A stretch of 62,788 nucleotides of DNA. It comes from Candidatus Omnitrophota bacterium (GTDB taxonomy: Bacteria > Omnitrophota > Gorgyraeia > Gygaellales > Profunditerraquicolaceae). The notes below the pieces were generated by a model that saw only the letters and a program-made list of their open reading frames with translations, had not been told where the DNA came from and ran no database searches. Shown in pieces: positions 51,689 through 62,451 of this stretch. Within the stretch, counting starts at the first letter, position 1. Every line of letters begins with the position of its first letter. Made by a program: the position numbers and the translations under genes. The stretch lies in the NCBI GenBank assembly GCA_018825985.1, contig JAHKAP010000035.1:1-62788 (forward strand), read 5' to 3'.

Positions 51689-52933
51689 ATGAGTCAGGAA
51701 TTATTAAGCATAATCGAGCAGTTGGAGAGGGAGAAGGGTATAAAAAAAGAAGTTTTGGTAGCGGCAGTGGAGAGCGCAATTTTAAGCGCTGCCCGCAAGG
51801 TAATCGACACTAAGCCCGGAGAAGAGTTAAGTGTTAAGGTTGATCTATCCAACGGCAAGATCCACGCTTATAAAAACGAAGAAGAGATCACTTCTTTTGA
51901 TTTCGGCAGGATCGCTGCTTCTACCGCCAGGCAGGTAGTAATTCAGAAGATCCGGGAGGCTGAAAAGGATGTGATCTTTAATGAATTCCAGGCCAGGGTA
52001 GGTGAACTTACCAGCGGCACGGTTTACAGGTTTGAAAAAGGAAATACAATTATTGATCTTCTGGGCAAGGCCGAAGGCATACTTTTAAAAAGGGAGCAAT
52101 CAACTAAAGAAGAATTCAAACAGGGCCAGCGGATCCGGGCTTATGTCCTGGAGGTAAGAAAAGAGCTTAAGGGCCCTCAGATCATCCTTTCCCGGGCCCA
52201 TCCCAGCCTGGTGAAGAAATTATTCGAATTAGAAGTCCCGGAGATATACGATGGAACAGTGGAAATAAAAGCCATCTCCCGCCAGGCAGGAGAGCGTACC
52301 AAGATCGCGGTTGCTTCCAAGAATGAAAAAGTGGATTCAGTGGGCGCTTGTGTGGGGATGCGGGGGAACCGGGTGAAAAATGTCGTTAACGAACTACAAG
52401 GTGAGAAAATCGATATTGTGCGTTATAATGAAGATATAAAGGAATATATCAAGGCCGCGCTTTTACCGGCTGAAATATCGGAGATAAAATTAGATAAAGC
52501 TAATAAGCGGGCCGAGGTAATTGTGGCTAATGATCAGCTTTCTTTGGCTATCGGAAAACATGGCCAGAATGTGCGTTTAGCGTCTAAGTTGATCGGCTGG
52601 GAACTGGATATCCGGACCAAAGAGACTGCTGCGGCTGTTGTTGCTGCTGCGGAAGCTGCGGCTGCTGAAGCTGCCAGCCGGGTTAAATTGGCTGCCGAGG
52701 CGCTTGAAGAAGAAAAGGTAAGGGTAGAGGTAGAGCAAAAAGCAAAAACAAAAGCCAAGAAGGCTAAAACCAGGGCTAAAATTGAATCCAAAACCAAAGC
52801 AGAGGCTAAGCCTAAGACAGAGGCAAGAGCCAAAACTAAGGCCGAACCTAAAGTTAAGGCTCCGGCTAAAACCAAGACCGTCAAGCCAAAGGCTGAAAAA
52901 AAGAGCAGAAAAACATCAGCCGTGAAAGAATAG
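51689..52933 (+). CDS. nusA: transcription termination/antitermination factor NusA with Lys/Ala-rich C-terminal tail
   Basis: S1/KH layout (GxxIRAYV..., VGACVGMRGNRVKNV, LAIGKHGQNVRLASKL), then AAAVVAAAEAAAAEAA followed by KAKTKAKKAKTRAK... Confidence 0.9.
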   Translation: MSQELLSIIEQLEREKGIKKEVLVAAVESAILSAARKVIDTKPGEELSVKVDLSNGKIHAYKNEEEITSFDFGRIAASTARQVVIQKIREAEKDVIFNEFQARVGELTSGTVYRFEKGNTIIDLLGKAEGILLKREQSTKEEFKQGQRIRAYVLEVRKELKGPQIILSRAHPSLVKKLFELEVPEIYDGTVEIKAISRQAGERTKIAVASKNEKVDSVGACVGMRGNRVKNVVNELQGEKIDIVRYNEDIKEYIKAALLPAEISEIKLDKANKRAEVIVANDQLSLAIGKHGQNVRLASKLIGWELDIRTKETAAAVVAAAEAAAAEAASRVKLAAEALEEEKVRVEVEQKAKTKAKKAKTRAKIESKTKAEAKPKTEARAKTKAEPKVKAPAKTKTVKPKAEKKSRKTSAVKE

Positions 52934-52939
52934 GATAAT

Positions 52940-55114
52940 ATGACCGAAGATAGAAAGAAAAAAACCAAGACAAAGGCAGAAGCAAAGATTAAGCCTAAGG
53001 CAAAAACAGAGACCAGGGCTAAGCCTAAAGCTAAGCCTGTGGTAAAACCAAAGGCGGTTAAAAAAGAGATTAAACCAGCGCCTAAACCTAAGATAGTTGA
53101 AAAACCTAAGGCGGCTAAGGCGGGCCTGCATAAAACTAAAGTTGTTGAAAAACAGGCCCATCTTCCGGTAAAAGAAGAGGTTAGGCCCAAGGTCGAGGCA
53201 AAACTAAAAGTAGAGGCGCATAAGCCGGTAGTTGCTGAACCGGCAAAACATGCTCCAACTGTGGCCCAACCTCCGAAGCCTACGGCTGTCGAAGCCCCTA
53301 AGCCGGTAATTGAACCTCCTAAGCCTATATTAGTTCCTCCTCCTGTAACGCTGACTAAAGAATTGGAACTAGAATTACCTATTACTGTTAAAGACCTGGC
53401 TATTAGGCTGGTGGATAAATCTTCCAACCTGATCAAGACTTTGATGGGTATGGGTGTTATGGCGGGGTTAAATAATTTTCTCAAAGAAGAGATAGTGGCT
53501 AAGGTCTGTGAAAAATATGGTTTTGCGGTTAAAAAAGCCTTGGCTAAAGAAGAGATAGCCTTAGAATTACATACAGACGCAGATTCTCAGGAACAATTAA
53601 AGCCGCGGTCTCCGATAGTTACTTTAATGGGACATGTAGACCATGGCAAGACTTCGCTTTTGGACGCTATCCGCAAGAGTAAAGTCGCGGAATCAGAACA
53701 CGGCGGGATTACCCAGCATATCGGGGCTTACCGGGTGGTTCTGCCCCACGGCGAGATCACTTTTTTAGATACCCCCGGCCATGAGGCTTTTACAGCCATG
53801 CGAGCAAGAGGAGCTAAGGTCACGGATATGGTGATTTTAGTTGTAGCTGCTGATGATGGTATTATGCCTCAGACCAAAGAAGCGATCGACCATGCCCGGG
53901 CCGCCGGAGTTTCAATAATCGTAGCAGTGAATAAAATTGATAAATCAGGCGCTGACCTGGACCGGGTTAAAAAACAATTATCCGCGCTCGACCTTACAGC
54001 TGAAGATTGGGGCGGAAAGACTATTACAGTCGCGGTATCAGCCAAGACCGGAGAAGGCATAGATACACTTTTAGAGATGGTGCTTTTAGAAGCCCAGATG
54101 ATGGAATTAAGGGCTAATCCTGACCGCTTGGCTAAAGGTATTGTGCTGGAAGCAAAACTGATCAAGAGTAAGGGGCCGATAGCGACACTCCTGGTGCAAA
54201 ACGGAACTTTGCATTTAAATGATAATATTATAGTGGGTAAATTTTACGGGAAGATCCGGGCAATGTATGATGCCCGCGGCCATTCAGTTACCAAAGCAAT
54301 GCCTTCTTTCCCGGTTGAAGTTTTAGGTATATCCGGGGTTCCTGAAGCAGGCGAACAGTTTTATGTAATTGAGGATGAAAAGACAGCCAAGAACCTGTCT
54401 TTGCAGAGACAGGAACAGGAGAGGGACCAGCAGATAATTTCAATAAAGAGGATGGGGTTGGAAGACCTGTATTCCCAGATCCAACAGGGAAAGCTTAAGG
54501 AGCTTAACCTGGTAATTAAAGCTGATGCCCAAGGGTCATTAGAGGCGATTAAAGATACCTTAGGCAGGATAAATACCGAAGAGATCAAGATGAGTATTAT
54601 CCATGACGGTATCGGCAATATCAATACTTCCGACGTGATCCTGGCGATAGCTTCTAATGCTTTGATCTTAGGTTTTAACATTGTTGTAGATGAACAGGCT
54701 AAGGAATTGATCTCCAAAGAAGGCCAGGATGTGCGCATATATAATATTATTTATGAGCTGGCTAATGACATTCGGGCGGCTTTAACCGGTATGTTGGCGC
54801 CTAAATTAAAGAAGGTATTTTTAGGCAGGGTGGAGATCAAAAAAGTATTCCGGCTTTCCTCGCACGGAGTTATTGCCGGTTGCATTGTTTCTAAGGGCAA
54901 GGTCATTCGTTCGGCTGAAGCTGAACTGGTGCGTAACGGGACAGTAATTTATACCGGAAAGATATCTTCGTTAAAGCGCTTTAAAGATGATGTTAAGGAA
55001 GTAGAAGAAGGTTTTGAGTGCGGCGTGGCTTTAGCGAATTTTGACGCTATCTTAGAAGGCGATGTGATCGAGGCTTTCCAGGTTCAGAAGATCGCCCGGG
55101 TGTTAGAGGAATAA
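52940..55114 (+). CDS. infB: translation initiation factor IF-2
   Basis: K/P/A-rich N terminus, then the G domain [20 protein letters not shown] and NKID. Confidence 0.92.
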
Positions 55115-58135: not shown

Positions 58136-58145
58136 TTTATCAAAT

Positions 58146-58191
58146 ATTTCTTTGTTGAGAATGAGGGTGTTTAAAATATGTCTCGCTATCC
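58146..58191 (+). repeat. degenerate copy of the island junction element
   Basis: atttctttgttgagaatgagggtgtttaaaatatgtctcgctatcc aligns loosely with ttctttgaaaatagtgagttagatttggtctcttctcgcgtctatt at 61812. Confidence 0.35.
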
Positions 58192-58224
58192 AAAAAATGA
58201 TTACTCTATAATGAGAGGAAATAT

Positions 58225-60591
58225 ATGGTAACCAATCCAAAAGAAAACTATAGATATTGTGCTTTTACAGGTTCACTTTGTAATAAATTATTGCCTAATG
58301 AGAATGATTTAAAGGTATTCTTTGCCTACCCGTCAGTACCTAAAATTAATGGCTATATGAATGATATTTGTAATCATGTAGAGTTAAAAGGGATGGATCT
58401 TTTTCCTTGGATAAACTTAAGTGATTCAGGGGGGATCATCTTTTGTAAAATATGCTCTCACATATTAGAATCACACGCTATTGTTGCAGACATTACATAT
58501 ATAAACCAAAATGTACTTTTTGAACTTGGATTTGGTATAGCAAATGGAAAAATACCAATACTCATAAAAGAAGAAAGCAGAAGTGGTAATGTTATTGATA
58601 TTTTGAAAGATATAAAACGTATCGATTATTCTGATATCGACGCTTTGGCTGGAAAATTATATGGAGCTTTTTTTTCAGAATTCACCTTTTCTGATTTATC
58701 CGATACTTCTGATAATCCCCAAGTTTTCTTTATAAATGCAGATGCGAACATGCCTATTAAAAGACCTATATATAAATATTTGGAAGAAAATTGTCGAGAT
58801 TTTCTATTTAATATACAAATTGATGATTCTTCTGAAATCTCGAGCCATAAATTAATCCATCTATTAAAAACTATTAATAAGAGTGAATTGATTGTATGTC
58901 ACATGGTAGGAATTGATTATAAAGGATATGATGAAATAAATGCCCAAGTAGCTTTTCTAGCTGGCTATGCTTTGGGGAAACAGAAAAAGATTATAATACT
59001 TCAGGAGTATCCATCTGATAAGATGCTTGATTTGCAACAGGTAAGGCGTGTGTATAGAGATAAAAAAGAAGCTCTCCAACTTCTAGAAAATTGGTTGAGA
59101 CCGATTAAGGACGCGAAATTAAAGATTTTAGAAAATGAAAAGAAAAACAAAGAACAAGCTGTTCTTAAGGAACAATTATCTTTAGCTTTGGGTCATCCTG
59201 CTGCGGAATATGACTCCAATTTAGATGATTCTTTTATTGAAACAAATGATTTCTTAGAAGCGAGGAGATTTAGGAAAGATTTGTTTATTGGTCGTAGGGG
59301 TACCGGGAAAACAGCTAATTTTCTCCAACTCAGTAAAGATTTTAAGAGACATCCTCGGAATATTGTGGTTGAAATAGTACCTTCTAAATTACAATTAATT
59401 AGTACTATCGACTATTTGTATAGTAGGGCAGGAAATGAACGCGTTACTGCACTTTTCGAGATGTTTTGGCAGTATTTAATTCTTACGGAGATTGCTATTC
59501 AATGTCAGAGATATGAAGTAACTAATAATTTTATGGTGGATCCTGGATCATTTCATGATGTAGTAACGCTTCTGGAAGAGTATGTTGATACGCATACGGA
59601 ATTTGACATTCGGTTTAATGATATAATTAATAGATTTTGCGATGTAGTCATGCAATCTAAAACAAATGACCTTAGAGCTATCATTCTACAAAATTTTTAT
59701 AAAGAGTATTTTCCAAAAATGCAGAAAGCTGTTTTAAAAATTAGCAATCATCATCCTATAGTAGTTTTAATTGATAATTTGGACAAAGATTGGGACAAAA
59801 AAAATATATCAAGCATTTCCGCTTTAGTTAATTCGCTTTTTGATATTATGAATAGAATTAACGTTAATAGTTCATTTGGAGATTGTAAGGTAGTATGCTT
59901 TCTAAGGACGGATATTTATCAAATATCATCAAAATATGATTCTGACTTTGATAAAAGACAACCTCAGGCATTAAAGTGGGATAAAGAATTGCTGAAGGCA
60001 GTTATTTGTGAACGTATAGCTTCTGCTAAAGGAATAGTTGGCGGCAATTATGATGATTTGTGGAGGGCTGTATTCGGAAATAATGTCGGGTCTATTGTAA
60101 ATGTGTTTGATTATATTATGGAAAAGACGATGCTAAGACCAAGGGATATTTTAACATTTTGTACCTATATTTTAGATAATATGATGAAAAAGGAAAAGAC
60201 TGTCGTAGATGAACAAATTATTCTTGAATCGGAGAAGCTTTATTCCGATTATTTATTGAGAAGTATAAGGCAAGAGTATATGATTGGATATCCTGACATT
60301 GATGATATATGTGCGGAGATATTTTTTGGAAGAAATACATTTTTTACTGAAAGTCAATTAAGAGAGAGAGTAGCAAATTATGCAGTTTCAAGATCAGAAT
60401 ATGGAATTGATGACATTATCGCATTTTGTTTTAAAAGCGGCATGTTAGGTATTGAAATTAATAATGTTATGCATTTTGAATATGAGGGCAAAGACTATAA
60501 TTTACTTATAAGTCAAGCACGTAAAAATCCTAAAGATTTTAATTTTATTGTCCATCCCGGACTTCGTGAGGTTTTAGAAACTAAATCATAA
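58225..60591 (+). CDS. tandem TIR-like/nucleoside-2-deoxyribosyltransferase-like domains fused to a P-loop NTPase (defence-type protein)
   Basis: aa 28-115: VFFAYP ... VADITYINQNVLFELGFGIANGKIPILI (flavodoxin-fold TIR/NDT-like with a conserved Glu). aa 165-262: a second copy with FLAGYALGKQKKIIIL in which the Glu is lost. Walker A is GRRGTGKT (nt 59290-59313) and Walker B is VVLIDNLD (nt ~59761-59784). The gene is AT-rich. Confidence 0.65.
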   Translation: MVTNPKENYRYCAFTGSLCNKLLPNENDLKVFFAYPSVPKINGYMNDICNHVELKGMDLFPWINLSDSGGIIFCKICSHILESHAIVADITYINQNVLFELGFGIANGKIPILIKEESRSGNVIDILKDIKRIDYSDIDALAGKLYGAFFSEFTFSDLSDTSDNPQVFFINADANMPIKRPIYKYLEENCRDFLFNIQIDDSSEISSHKLIHLLKTINKSELIVCHMVGIDYKGYDEINAQVAFLAGYALGKQKKIIILQEYPSDKMLDLQQVRRVYRDKKEALQLLENWLRPIKDAKLKILENEKKNKEQAVLKEQLSLALGHPAAEYDSNLDDSFIETNDFLEARRFRKDLFIGRRGTGKTANFLQLSKDFKRHPRNIVVEIVPSKLQLISTIDYLYSRAGNERVTALFEMFWQYLILTEIAIQCQRYEVTNNFMVDPGSFHDVVTLLEEYVDTHTEFDIRFNDIINRFCDVVMQSKTNDLRAIILQNFYKEYFPKMQKAVLKISNHHPIVVLIDNLDKDWDKKNISSISALVNSLFDIMNRINVNSSFGDCKVVCFLRTDIYQISSKYDSDFDKRQPQALKWDKELLKAVICERIASAKGIVGGNYDDLWRAVFGNNVGSIVNVFDYIMEKTMLRPRDILTFCTYILDNMMKKEKTVVDEQIILESEKLYSDYLLRSIRQEYMIGYPDIDDICAEIFFGRNTFFTESQLRERVANYAVSRSEYGIDDIIAFCFKSGMLGIEINNVMHFEYEGKDYNLLISQARKNPKDFNFIVHPGLREVLETKS

Positions 60592-60640
60592 AACTAGGGG
60601 ACGGTTCTGTTTATTTGGTAATTCTGAGACTGAATAATTA

Positions 60641-60659
60641 GGGACAGCGACTATTTTTT
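60641..60659. repeat. solo left arm of the GGGACAGCGACTATTTTTT palindromic element
   Basis: Identical 19-mer to 33501-33519, but no matching right arm follows. Confidence 0.7.
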
Positions 60660-60674
60660 AAACTATAGTAAATA

Positions 60675-60708
60675 GGGACACCCCGTAATTCAATCGGCAG
60701 GGTGTCCC
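60675..60708. repeat. hairpin repeat AATAGGGACACCC-N16-GGGTGTCCC
   Basis: Arms at 60675-60683 and 60700-60708. A homologous element lies at 62575-62608. Confidence 0.75.
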
Positions 60709-60777
60709 CTAAACTCGGGGAAGGGCGGTGGCGAGGCGGCGGTTGAGAAGAATAGAAGTATACTGAGTGATAGAAAA

Positions 60778-60812
60778 GTTTGTTAGATTTACGCAATTAA
60801 AGCGTCTATTAG
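60778..60812 (+). repeat. island junction element, copy A (contains GTTAGAT)
   Basis: gtttgttagatttacgcaattaaagcgtctattag is preceded by the GC-rich gggcggtggcgaggcggcggttgag (60723-60747). Confidence 0.6.
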
Positions 60813-60910
60813 TAGTAGAAAGTAAGTGGTCGCAGATTGCAACCAGTTTATAGGGTATAAATCTTTAAAAAGACATAATTATGTGGCATACTTTAAATAG
60901 GAAAAAGATA

Positions 60911-60939
60911 TTGACTATCGAGATATTATATGGTATAAA
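60911..60939 (+). promoter_or_regulatory. sigma70-like promoter upstream of a short structured RNA and the NYN gene
   Basis: TTGACT (60911-60916), 17-nt spacer, TATAAA (60934-60939). Confidence 0.5.
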
Positions 60940-60945
60940 AAATAA

Positions 60946-61009
60946 TCATCCCAGCGAGATCTCGTATCTTGCTGGCCCCGAACTCTTCGTGAGTTCGGGA
61001 TTTTTTTTT
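60946..61009 (+). ncRNA. candidate ~60-nt small RNA / attenuator leader (two hairpins + U9 terminator)
   Basis: Hairpin 1 is CCAGC-N15-GCTGG (60951-60975). Hairpin 2 is CCCGAACTC-ttcgt-GAGTTCGGG (60977-60999), followed by A and T9 (61001-61009). It starts about 7 nt after the -10 box and ends 17 nt before the NYN ATG. Confidence 0.45.
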
Positions 61010-61026
61010 ATATAGCGGATTAAGAT

Positions 61027-61638
61027 ATGAATAGATGTGCTTTTTTCGCGGACGGTTTTAATATATACCATTCTTTAGACGCATTACCCTCCTATTATAA
61101 ATATAAATGGCTAAACCTCGCCAAGCTAGCAAAAACATTTATTGCTTCATCCAGTGAAATTACCAGCATATTTTACTTCACTACTTATATTACCTGGGAT
61201 CAAAGGAAACTAGCCAGGCATCAGATATATGTTAGGGCTTTACAATCGGAAGGCGTCCAGCCAGTTTTTGGCGAGTTCCGGCGGGTGGATAGGGTATGCA
61301 AAGTTTGCCACAGGCAATACCAGACTTTTGAGGAAAAACAAACCGATGTTAACATCGCGATTAAGCTTTTTGAGACTGCTGTGACTGACCTATGGGATAC
61401 AGCAATAATCATTTCAGGAGATAGCGATTTGATACCGGCCCTGAAGGCAGTAAAAGCTACGTTCCCCACAAAGAAGGTTGGTATAATTATTCCCATAGCT
61501 AGAAGGGCTGAAGAGCTAAAGCAAGCGGCTGATTTTCACATGAAGATTAAAGAAAAGCACTTGATGAGTTGCCAGTTTGAAGATATGGTAATTATCGATA
61601 AGAATACAAAGTTGACTCGTCCAATTACTTGGAAATAG
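61027..61638 (+). CDS. NYN-domain (LabA/PIN-like) ribonuclease
   Basis: AFFADGFNIYHS, EKQTDVNIAIKL and IIISGDSDLIPALK (acidic residues of the NYN fold). Confidence 0.75.
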   Translation: MNRCAFFADGFNIYHSLDALPSYYKYKWLNLAKLAKTFIASSSEITSIFYFTTYITWDQRKLARHQIYVRALQSEGVQPVFGEFRRVDRVCKVCHRQYQTFEEKQTDVNIAIKLFETAVTDLWDTAIIISGDSDLIPALKAVKATFPTKKVGIIIPIARRAEELKQAADFHMKIKEKHLMSCQFEDMVIIDKNTKLTRPITWK

Positions 61639-61934: not shown

Positions 61935-62234
61935 TTGTGGGGCAGAGATTTGGATATAATATTCGGAAGTTTTGTTTGGGACGAGGCCAAAGAATCAGCA
62001 AACCTATATAAACATGGAGTTAATTTTGTCATTGCTTGCAGGGTATTTAAGGACGCGGATAGGAAGATATATATTGATTTAAAGCATACTAGTAAAGAAG
62101 AAAGATTTTTCTGCATAGGAAAAGTTGAAGATAAAGTTTTAACCGTCAGGTTTACTTATCGCGGAGATAAAATTAGGATTATCGGAGCCGGATATTGGAG
62201 AAAGGGAAAAGATTACTATGAAAGCAAGGAATAA
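61935..62234 (+). CDS. brnT: BrnT-family toxin (DUF497)
   Basis: FVWDEAKESANLYKHGVNFVIACRVFKD ... EERFFCIGKVEDKVLTVRFTYRGDKIRIIGAGYWRKGKDYY. The TTG start position is uncertain. Confidence 0.85.
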   Translation: MWGRDLDIIFGSFVWDEAKESANLYKHGVNFVIACRVFKDADRKIYIDLKHTSKEERFFCIGKVEDKVLTVRFTYRGDKIRIIGAGYWRKGKDYYESKE

Positions 62235-62451
62235 TAATTCAGATATGCCTATCGGGAAATTGACCAAAATAAAGGATTTTCTTCCTCCGCCAGCTGAATT
62301 GGCGATTCCGGAAGAAACTGAAAAGATCACTATATCGCTTAATAAGTCCAGCATTGAATTCTTTAAGCGCCAGGCCCAGCAACATAATACTAAATACCAG
62401 AGGATGATCCGCGAGCTAATTGATAAATACGCCACACAATACTCAAAATAA
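62218..62451 (+). CDS. brnA: BrnA-family antitoxin (CopG/RHH-like)
   Basis: DFLPPPAEL ... ITISLNKSSIEFFKRQAQQHNTKYQRMIRELIDKY. It overlaps brnT by 17 nt. Confidence 0.85.
   Translation: MKARNNNSDMPIGKLTKIKDFLPPPAELAIPEETEKITISLNKSSIEFFKRQAQQHNTKYQRMIRELIDKYATQYSK

Follow-up and report, generated by a model that had tools for sequence, protein, structure and literature searches.

The locus and its 788-residue protein

In this work we analyzed a 62,788 nt stretch of DNA from a Candidatus Omnitrophota bacterium (contig JAHKAP010000035.1 of assembly GCA_018825985.1; the whole stretch is referred to below as the window), in which one open reading frame (ORF) at 58225..60591 of the forward strand had been put forward in an initial annotation as a candidate single-gene antiphage defence system. 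The ORF starts with ATG, encodes 788 amino acids (aa) and is present exactly as annotated, as are the motifs quoted for it. These are FFAYP (aa 32-36), ADITYINQNVLFELGFGIANGKIPILI (aa 88-114, which includes Glu100) and AFLAGYALGK (aa 243-252) in the N-terminal part, followed by the ATPase motifs GRRGTGKT (aa 356-363) and VVLIDNLD (aa 513-520). The encoded protein is composed of two tandem domains resembling nucleoside 2-deoxyribosyltransferases (NDT), a linker helix and a P-loop ATPase of the Sll1717 family (Table 1). The genes nusA, infB, trpS, scpA and ruvB lie upstream on the same strand, and an NYN-domain gene and a toxin-antitoxin pair lie downstream. The GC content is 0.33-0.35 over 58-61 kb versus about 0.44 for the remaining window, so that the placement of an AT-rich gene at a junction of core genome and island was correctly described.

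Table 1. Features of the locus, in positions of the window.
Feature	Position	Strand	Basis
GC-rich 93-nt hairpin with perfect stem, then U-run, directly 3' of the ruvB stop codon	58035..58127	+	RNA minimum free energy -54.8 kcal/mol, z -5.6 versus shuffles
AT-rich leader, 85 nt, putative own promoter; ribosome-binding site GAGAGGA 7 nt 5' of ATG	58140..58224	+	Sequence
Whole ORF: tandem NDT-like module, linker helix, Sll1717-family P-loop ATPase	58225..60591	+	AlphaFold2 mean pLDDT 85.8
Domain 1 (aa ~26-150), NDT/DNPH1-like N-glycosidase fold, motif N94-x-N96-V-L-F-E100-x-G102	58300..58674	+	Profile, Foldseek
Glu100 codon, predicted catalytic nucleophile	58522..58524	+	212/212 homologues; alignment to DNPH1 Glu
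Domain 2 (aa ~165-279), degenerate copy of domain 1, Ala246 at Glu position	58717..59061	+	hhalign, alignment
Long linker helix (aa 280-321) from N-glycosidase module to ATPase	59062..59187	+	DSSP on models, helix H280-321
P-loop ATPase core (aa 322-586)	59188..59982	+	NF047389, conservation, Foldseek
Walker A, G356-T363	59290-59313	+	Sequence, conservation
Walker B, V513-D520	59761-59784	+	Sequence, conservation
Helical lid and C-terminal winged-helix-like region (aa 587-788)	59983..60588	+	Secondary structure, conservation, Orc1/Cdc6 alignment
NYN-domain gene, same low-GC island	61027..61638	+	Match to PADLOC candidate HEC-09, full length, 203/203 positions, E 1e-57
BrnT toxin gene	61935..62234	+	Pfam BrnT_toxin E 9e-22
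BrnA/CopG-like antitoxin gene	62218..62451	+	Weak BrnA and CopG matches

The two NDT-like domains and the ATPase

Conservation was assessed on an alignment of 212 full-length family members, most of which are representatives of 50%-identity clusters. In domain 1 Glu100, N96, V97 and G102 are each found in 212/212 sequences and W62 in 211/212, the remaining sequence having a gap at this position. The position of domain 2 equivalent to Glu100 is occupied by Ala in 157 sequences, Ser in 29, Cys in 19, Gly in six and Thr in one, and by Glu in none of the 212, while G247 and D269 of this domain are invariant. The ATPase half is as strictly constrained, with the Walker A Lys362, the Walker B Asp517, R561, D563, P639 and R640 present in all sequences and D641 in 211 of them. 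Being invariant in 212 full-length homologues, the quoted motifs are not chance matches, and the invariance of these residues indicates strict selection on both the domain 1 glycosidase site and the nucleotide site in the ATPase half.

The nature of domain 1 was addressed with a profile made from the first 300 residues of 31 homologues and searched against the sequences of the PDB. This returned human DNPH1, rat Rcl, a MilB-type CMP N-glycosidase and NDTs (best E 8e-4), and aligned Glu100 to the catalytic nucleophile of DNPH1, the Glu in its "GYELG" motif; the conserved Glu therefore sits at the NDT-type position where the initial annotation had placed it. The AlphaFold2 model of residues 1-300 (pLDDT 89, pTM 0.90) matched DNPH1, Rcl, BcmB and NDT in Foldseek with a probability of 1.00 (TMt 0.6-0.76, root-mean-square deviation 2.6-4.9 A), and these NDT-type enzymes ranked above the canonical TIR domains MyD88 and SARM1. 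The Pfam TIR models (TIR, TIR_2 and ThsB_TIR, of the clan STIR) gave no match to the protein at E up to 10, and some homologues showed only weak TIR_2 or CAP12-PCTIR matches (E 0.002-0.09). As canonical TIRs match less well and Pfam TIR models do not match, the fold is NDT-like rather than TIR; of the combined TIR/NDT label originally given to the tandem domains only the NDT part stands, and a canonical TIR assignment was rejected. The Pfam NDT family itself (PF05014, clan Nribosyltransf) scored 20.3-23.9 bits on the whole protein and on the isolated N-terminus, versus a gathering cut-off of 28.8. Whether the N-terminal domains match such folds at all had been named as a point on which the defence proposal could fail, and they do match NDT folds. 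From its motif and alignment, domain 1 is predicted to be catalytically active.

Domain 2 repeats the fold of domain 1, as had been proposed. Comparison of the two domain profiles with hhalign (E 2e-6, 122 columns, probability 78%) placed the Glu of the first opposite the Ala of the second, and the conservation pattern given above fits the proposed pseudo-enzyme. Read from its sequence, domain 2 is an inactivated duplicate and a conserved pseudo-enzyme, not a decaying remnant. The high pTM of the N-terminal model suggests that the two domains form a rigid pair. A search with the N-terminal profile for homologues having other fusion partners recovered only fragments of the same family. Domain 1 is preceded by an extra stretch of about 25 aa (aa 1-25, 58225-58300), for which a small beta-hairpin is predicted and which contains two conserved cysteines (C12 and C19); it is present in the clade comprising Omnitrophota, the Candidate Phyla Radiation (CPR) and Anaerohalosphaeraceae and in two more distant homologues, and most distant homologues are without it.

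The C-terminal 467 aa match the NCBIfam model NF047389, "P-loop ATPase, Sll1717 family", with 265.3 bits versus a cut-off of 75 (E 1.2e-78); the match runs from aa 322 to aa 784 and takes in all 454 profile positions, which bears out the tentative mention of an Sll1717-type P-loop family in the initial annotation. Judged by this match, the protein is a true family member. R561 and D563 are located after the strand that succeeds Walker B, and the near-invariant R638-P-R640-D641 motif opens a lid helix. When the full-length model was submitted to Foldseek the matches included the plant TIR-NLR RPP1 (NB-ARC), the SIR2-STAND protein EfAvs5, BrxC, Orc1/Cdc6 and TnsC, with Orc1/Cdc6 alignments of about 480 columns at TMt 0.36-0.47. 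Pfam signals in this half were weak (AAA_16, AAA_22, ORC-CDC6-like and, in relatives, nSTAND); PF24389 (ORC-CDC6-like) reached 13 bits in the protein itself and 29.4 bits versus a cut-off of 27 in homologue P0029, where it spans only about 45 residues around the P-loop. A profile of the ATPase searched against PDB sequences gave only generic P-loop matches and no sequence relative of solved structure. STAND-type features are present in the form of Walker A and B, R561, and the lid and winged-helix region, without a C-terminal repeat sensor, and the model comparisons support a STAND-like or AAA+-like ATPase. The STAND-like part of the initial "STAND/KAP-like" label may stand; a KAP NTPase was rejected, there being no Pfam KAP_NTPase match at E up to 1 and no transmembrane-type insert in the model.

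Family distribution, neighbouring genes and mobility

An exhaustive search with the ATPase-module profile identified 7,505 cluster representatives at E<=1e-3, of which 1,392 had E<=1e-30. Among the best 150 cluster representatives, all those that are complete have about 790 aa and the order domain 1, domain 2, ATPase; shorter top matches of the ATPase proved to be N-terminally truncated fragments and were rejected as separate architectures. In a set with one genome per species, relatives were found in 343 of 185,579 species from more than 15 phyla, including Acidobacteriota, Planctomycetota, Chloroflexota, Actinomycetota, Bacillota, Cyanobacteria, Elusimicrobia and CPR, and in one archaeon, a Methanofastidiosum. 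Most copies are chromosomal, and 12 plasmids carry the full architecture, among them a MOBQ plasmid of Bacillus mycoides on which the gene is flanked by a TnpB gene on one side and by conjugation genes on the other. No full-length copy was found in phage genomes and no similar architecture in a library of viral structures.

More distant Sll1717-like ATPases make up the N-terminal part of proteins with a length of about 690 aa, which hundreds of enterobacterial plasmids encode. On the E. coli F128 plasmid NZ_CP014273.1 (locus L083, 4965-7061) such a gene is a passenger of the Tn3-family element ISEc63 and adjoins its resolvase, and another is carried on Klebsiella phage-plasmids (CP052552.1, locus L084, 4986-7055). 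The C-terminal ends of these plasmid relatives match the PADLOC candidate PDC-M36A (E 1e-11 to 1e-13).

The GC content of the homologous genes is below that of their flanks in all 59 loci with enough flanking sequence (mean difference -9.5 points, Wilcoxon p 2e-11). In the Omnitrophota the closest RuvB is 95% identical and about two dozen relatives retain the order trpS-scpA-ruvB; neither the gene studied here nor the NYN gene nor the BrnTA pair is present in any of 60 related Omnitrophota ruvB loci. The closest homologue (77% identity), in another Omnitrophota metagenome-assembled genome, is followed by different genes. Conserved housekeeping surroundings had been named at the outset as a finding that would speak against a defence role, and the homologues do not occur in them. 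A conserved partner gene was sought and rejected, as each neighbour family was shared by at most three of 81 loci, and the few recurring families were HsdM, HsdR, an SNF2 helicase and the IS21 transposase; IS200 transposases also recur beside the family genes. Pfam analysis of 143 immediately adjacent genes identified Mrr_cat four times, N6_Mtase, Methylase_S, Type_ISP_C, Eco57I, MTES_1575, HNH_2 and SLATT_1/3 twice each, and a Schlafen-type helicase once, and the recurrent PADLOC models among adjacent genes were mad2, PDC-S02, type IIG and type I restriction-modification. For control, 91 genes located about 8 kb from the homologues were taken from these loci, and the families recurring among them were mostly housekeeping (ABC transporters, peptidases and hydrolases). 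The compositional signal is much stronger than the enrichment in defence neighbours. The family is horizontally mobile with an island-type distribution, and displays the features by which defence islands are operationally recognized, namely patchy horizontal spread, recurrent defence-gene neighbours (by qualitative comparison) and variable context.

In the window itself the hairpin that follows ruvB is probably the terminator of that gene and would part the ORF from the upstream housekeeping operon. Given this hairpin, the gene is probably transcribed alone from its own leader, which has a good ribosome-binding site and a putative promoter; promoter and terminator scans gave match counts that were not above chance level. 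Compared with other elements of terminator type the hairpin is unusually long, and it marks the point at which the core operon gives way to the low-GC island. The 435-bp gap between the ORF and the NYN gene (60592-61026) contains a hairpin (GGGACACCC...GGGTGTCCC) at about 60675-60710, and a strong terminator (60977-60999, followed by T9) only some 20 nt 5' of the NYN start codon. An Rfam search of this gap gave no match; the gap may harbour a small RNA or a remnant gene. The BrnT/BrnA-like type II toxin-antitoxin pair (61935..62451, forward strand) has the toxin gene first and an overlap of 17 nt between the genes. As the pair sits at the edge of the window the island may extend beyond it, and tRNA and Rfam searches for integration markers around the island found nothing. 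In 84 loci of the family neither the NYN/HEC-09 gene nor BrnTA was found to co-occur, and both were rejected as functional partners; they are island neighbours.

The remaining observations on the window concern its wider composition. The C-terminus of NusA and the N-terminus of InfB (52700-53400) have long low-complexity tails rich in Lys, Ala, Glu and Pro with KAKTKAK-type repeats, which yield the highest AT skew of the window (0.31). GC skew is positive in all 1-kb bins from 1 to 62788, the 62.8 kb contain no tRNA genes, and all of the genes identified in the 51.7-62.8 kb stretch are on the forward strand.

A candidate immune protein, its alternatives and known systems

We consider it fairly likely that the ORF encodes a self-contained, horizontally mobile immune protein of the abortive-infection type which acts through a nucleotide N-glycosidase. 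Its layout would be that of an NLR/Avs-like sensor, switch and effector in one chain, assembled from other parts, with an effector and a pseudo-effector first, then the long helix, the switch ATPase and a winged-helix end. A role in defence is inferred, as are the substrate, the trigger, and the steps of pseudo-dimer formation and oligomerization. Domain 1 would be the effector, with Glu100 as the nucleophile in the cleavage of a nucleotide between base and ribose. Enzymes of the NDT and DNPH1 type are obligate dimers, and since the pair of domains is also predicted to be rigid, the dead copy plausibly stands in for the second subunit; packed on domain 1, it would probably serve as the regulatory or scaffolding half. 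The ATPase would sense an infection cue, possibly a nucleic acid in view of its Orc1/Cdc6- and TnsC-like fold and winged-helix end, and an ATP-dependent conformational change or oligomerization would then release or assemble the N-glycosidase modules, which would deplete an essential nucleotide so that phage replication stops.

The likeliest substrates would be NAD(P)+ or a (deoxy)nucleotide, and there is precedent for both. The N-glycosidase effector of Retron-Eco1 hydrolyses NAD(P)+ (PMC12673091), and Swarozyc, a DUF4062 TIR-like, NDT-related NADase with a catalytic Glu, acts on NAD+ in single-gene abortive infection (10.64898/2026.05.01.722283); for (deoxy)nucleoside monophosphates the precedents are DNPH1 and MilB. 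A bolder version of the proposal is that of a pan-prokaryotic family of single-protein immune systems in which the active/pseudo NDT pair mimics a homodimer, an ORC/STAND-like ATPase gate reads a nucleic-acid cue through the winged-helix end, and the effector cleaves a (modified) deoxynucleotide and not NAD+, such as the hydroxymethylated deoxynucleoside monophosphates that DNPH1 hydrolyses. Phages building hypermodified DNA would then be starved by selective editing of the nucleotide pool. We regard this version as quite unlikely.

Several points weigh against a role in immunity. The Synechocystis protein Sll1717 is said to be linked to a phenotype in redox or the plastoquinone pool; a literature search on "Sll1717" found no paper on the family. 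Matches to the Pfam NDT family stay under the gathering threshold in the homologues as well as in the protein itself, and the protein lacks the long variable repeat-type sensor of a typical Avs or NLR, being conserved in length over its whole extent. The enrichment of defence genes among the neighbours is moderate and a qualitative comparison only, ordinary genes are numerous among them, and AbiU, ShosA and a DRT also occur in the control set some 8 kb away. The adjacent HEC-09 gene, which contributes to the argument from defence context, gave no protection against the phages tested according to its source preprint. Finally, no PADLOC model (PADLOC-DB v2.0.0) matches the protein, for which only a spurious 14-bit CARF match was returned, or its full-length homologue P0034, which returned none; since the database has no model for it, the protein is a candidate and not a recognized defence system.

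Three other explanations were weighed. The ATPase could control an N-glycosidase toxin in a selfish or addiction-type module, or in one for competition between mobile genetic elements, which stabilizes plasmids and islands or targets incoming plasmid or conjugative DNA. The full architecture on 12 plasmids, including the MOBQ plasmid with its TnpB and conjugation genes, is consistent with this, as are the distant ATPase relatives that ride a Tn3-family transposon on F128 and Klebsiella phage-plasmids, the IS21 and IS200 transposases that recur beside the gene and the BrnTA pair found near it in the window. Such a module is nevertheless unlikely, given that most copies are chromosomal, that no conserved antitoxin-like partner gene was found in 81 loci, and that the genes recurring beside the family serve restriction and defence and not plasmid maintenance; action against plasmids would, moreover, be compatible with action against phages. 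The closest solved relatives of domain 1 (DNPH1/Rcl, MilB/BcmB and NDT) are metabolic enzymes, and some sources annotate homologues as nucleoside 2-deoxyribosyltransferase, which would suit a housekeeping or stress enzyme of nucleotide metabolism whose ATPase regulates an N-glycosidase; the latter would remove damaged or modified nucleotides in the manner of DNPH1, or tune nucleotide or redox pools. The plastoquinone-pool phenotype to which Sll1717 is said to be linked would also suit such an enzyme. We consider this role very unlikely for a gene that is confined to about 0.2% of species genomes and patchily distributed over phyla, is compositionally foreign in 59/59 loci, has no conserved metabolic neighbourhood, is missing from the syntenic position in close relatives and is also found on plasmids.

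The last explanation reverses the roles of the two halves, with the tandem NDT-like module as a SLOG/LOG-like nucleotide-binding ligand sensor and the ATPase with its winged-helix end as the output, for instance on DNA. Rossmannoid folds of the SLOG and TIR-like kinds are nucleotide sensors in Thoeris and CBASS effectors, domain 2 keeps the invariant G247 and D269 without the Glu, and the ATPase is similar to Orc1/Cdc6 and TnsC, which bind DNA. Against this, the N-x-N-V-L-F-E-x-G motif and its Glu are absolutely invariant and align to the N-glycosidase nucleophile, no conserved signal-producing partner (a cyclase or TIR) lies nearby, and the protein has no recognizable nuclease or other effector domain, so that we judge the sensor role highly improbable.

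If the reading as an abortive-infection protein is correct, a family of about 1,400 clusters (E<=1e-30), found in 343 species of bacteria and archaea and missing from PADLOC-DB v2.0.0, the sole defence catalogue searched, would join the prokaryotic immune repertoire. NDT-type N-glycosidases would then be a third effector type fused to NLR-like switches, after TIR and SIR2, which would strengthen the evolutionary tie between nucleotide N-glycosidases and TIR immunity. It would also provide a first function for the Sll1717-type ATPases, which so far have no solved structure or assigned role and whose distant relatives travel on F-type plasmids, Tn3-family transposons and Klebsiella phage-plasmids. 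With an active and a dead enzyme copy always found together, the family offers a natural model for the control of immune effectors by pseudo-enzymes.

The protein was also compared with known systems. Literature searches combining NDT, DNPH1 or N-glycosidase with defence returned only retron, Swarozyc and Thoeris analogues, none of which has this architecture. The whole NF047389 model is matched by the C-terminal half, and many homologues carry its name in RefSeq and UniRef; this name covers the ATPase half only and implies no function, and the tandem NDT-like module lies outside the family definition. DNPH1/Rcl, MilB/BcmB and NDTs share the fold of domains 1 and 2 and likewise have their nucleophile Glu in a hydrophobic-E-x-G motif, but they are small stand-alone metabolic enzymes, homodimeric or hexameric, whereas the present protein has a predicted active copy and an inactive one in a single chain, tethered to an ATPase. 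The phosphate-binding GSIRGG loop of DNPH1 is not seen, the beta-1 loop being FFAYPS instead.

The Retron-Eco1 (Ec86) system also uses an NDT-type N-glycosidase, in that case an antiphage effector hydrolysing NAD(P)+ (PMC12673091), but it has three components and is controlled by a reverse transcriptase and msDNA, not by a fused ATPase. Swarozyc is closer in being a single gene with patchy, island-linked spread whose N-terminal domain, between the TIR and NDT families, has an essential Glu, and it causes abortive infection through NAD+ depletion (10.64898/2026.05.01.722283). It differs in that its TIR-like domain is single and its C-terminal auxiliary domain is not an ATPase, and in being activated by a phage portal protein (10.64898/2026.05.01.722283); the Pfam DUF4062 model gave no match to our protein at E up to 10. 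TIR-NLR, Avs and STAND proteins such as RPP1 and EfAvs5, which were the top full-length Foldseek matches, similarly place an N-terminal nucleotide-hydrolase effector before a P-loop switch ATPase in one polypeptide, and the family resembles them in being sporadic and horizontally transferred. Here, however, the predicted effector is of the NDT type and duplicated, the ATPase is of the Sll1717 type, a long repeat or variable sensor at the C-terminus is lacking, and no PADLOC Avs or NLR model matches. By fold and catalytic residue the protein falls into the NDT superfamily; it does not belong to the canonical TIRs, the KAP NTPases, the DUF4062/Swarozyc proteins or any PADLOC v2 system. By analogy, its outline of action would be like that of TIR-NLR, SIR2-STAND and Swarozyc, and the family stands as a well-supported candidate for a defence family.

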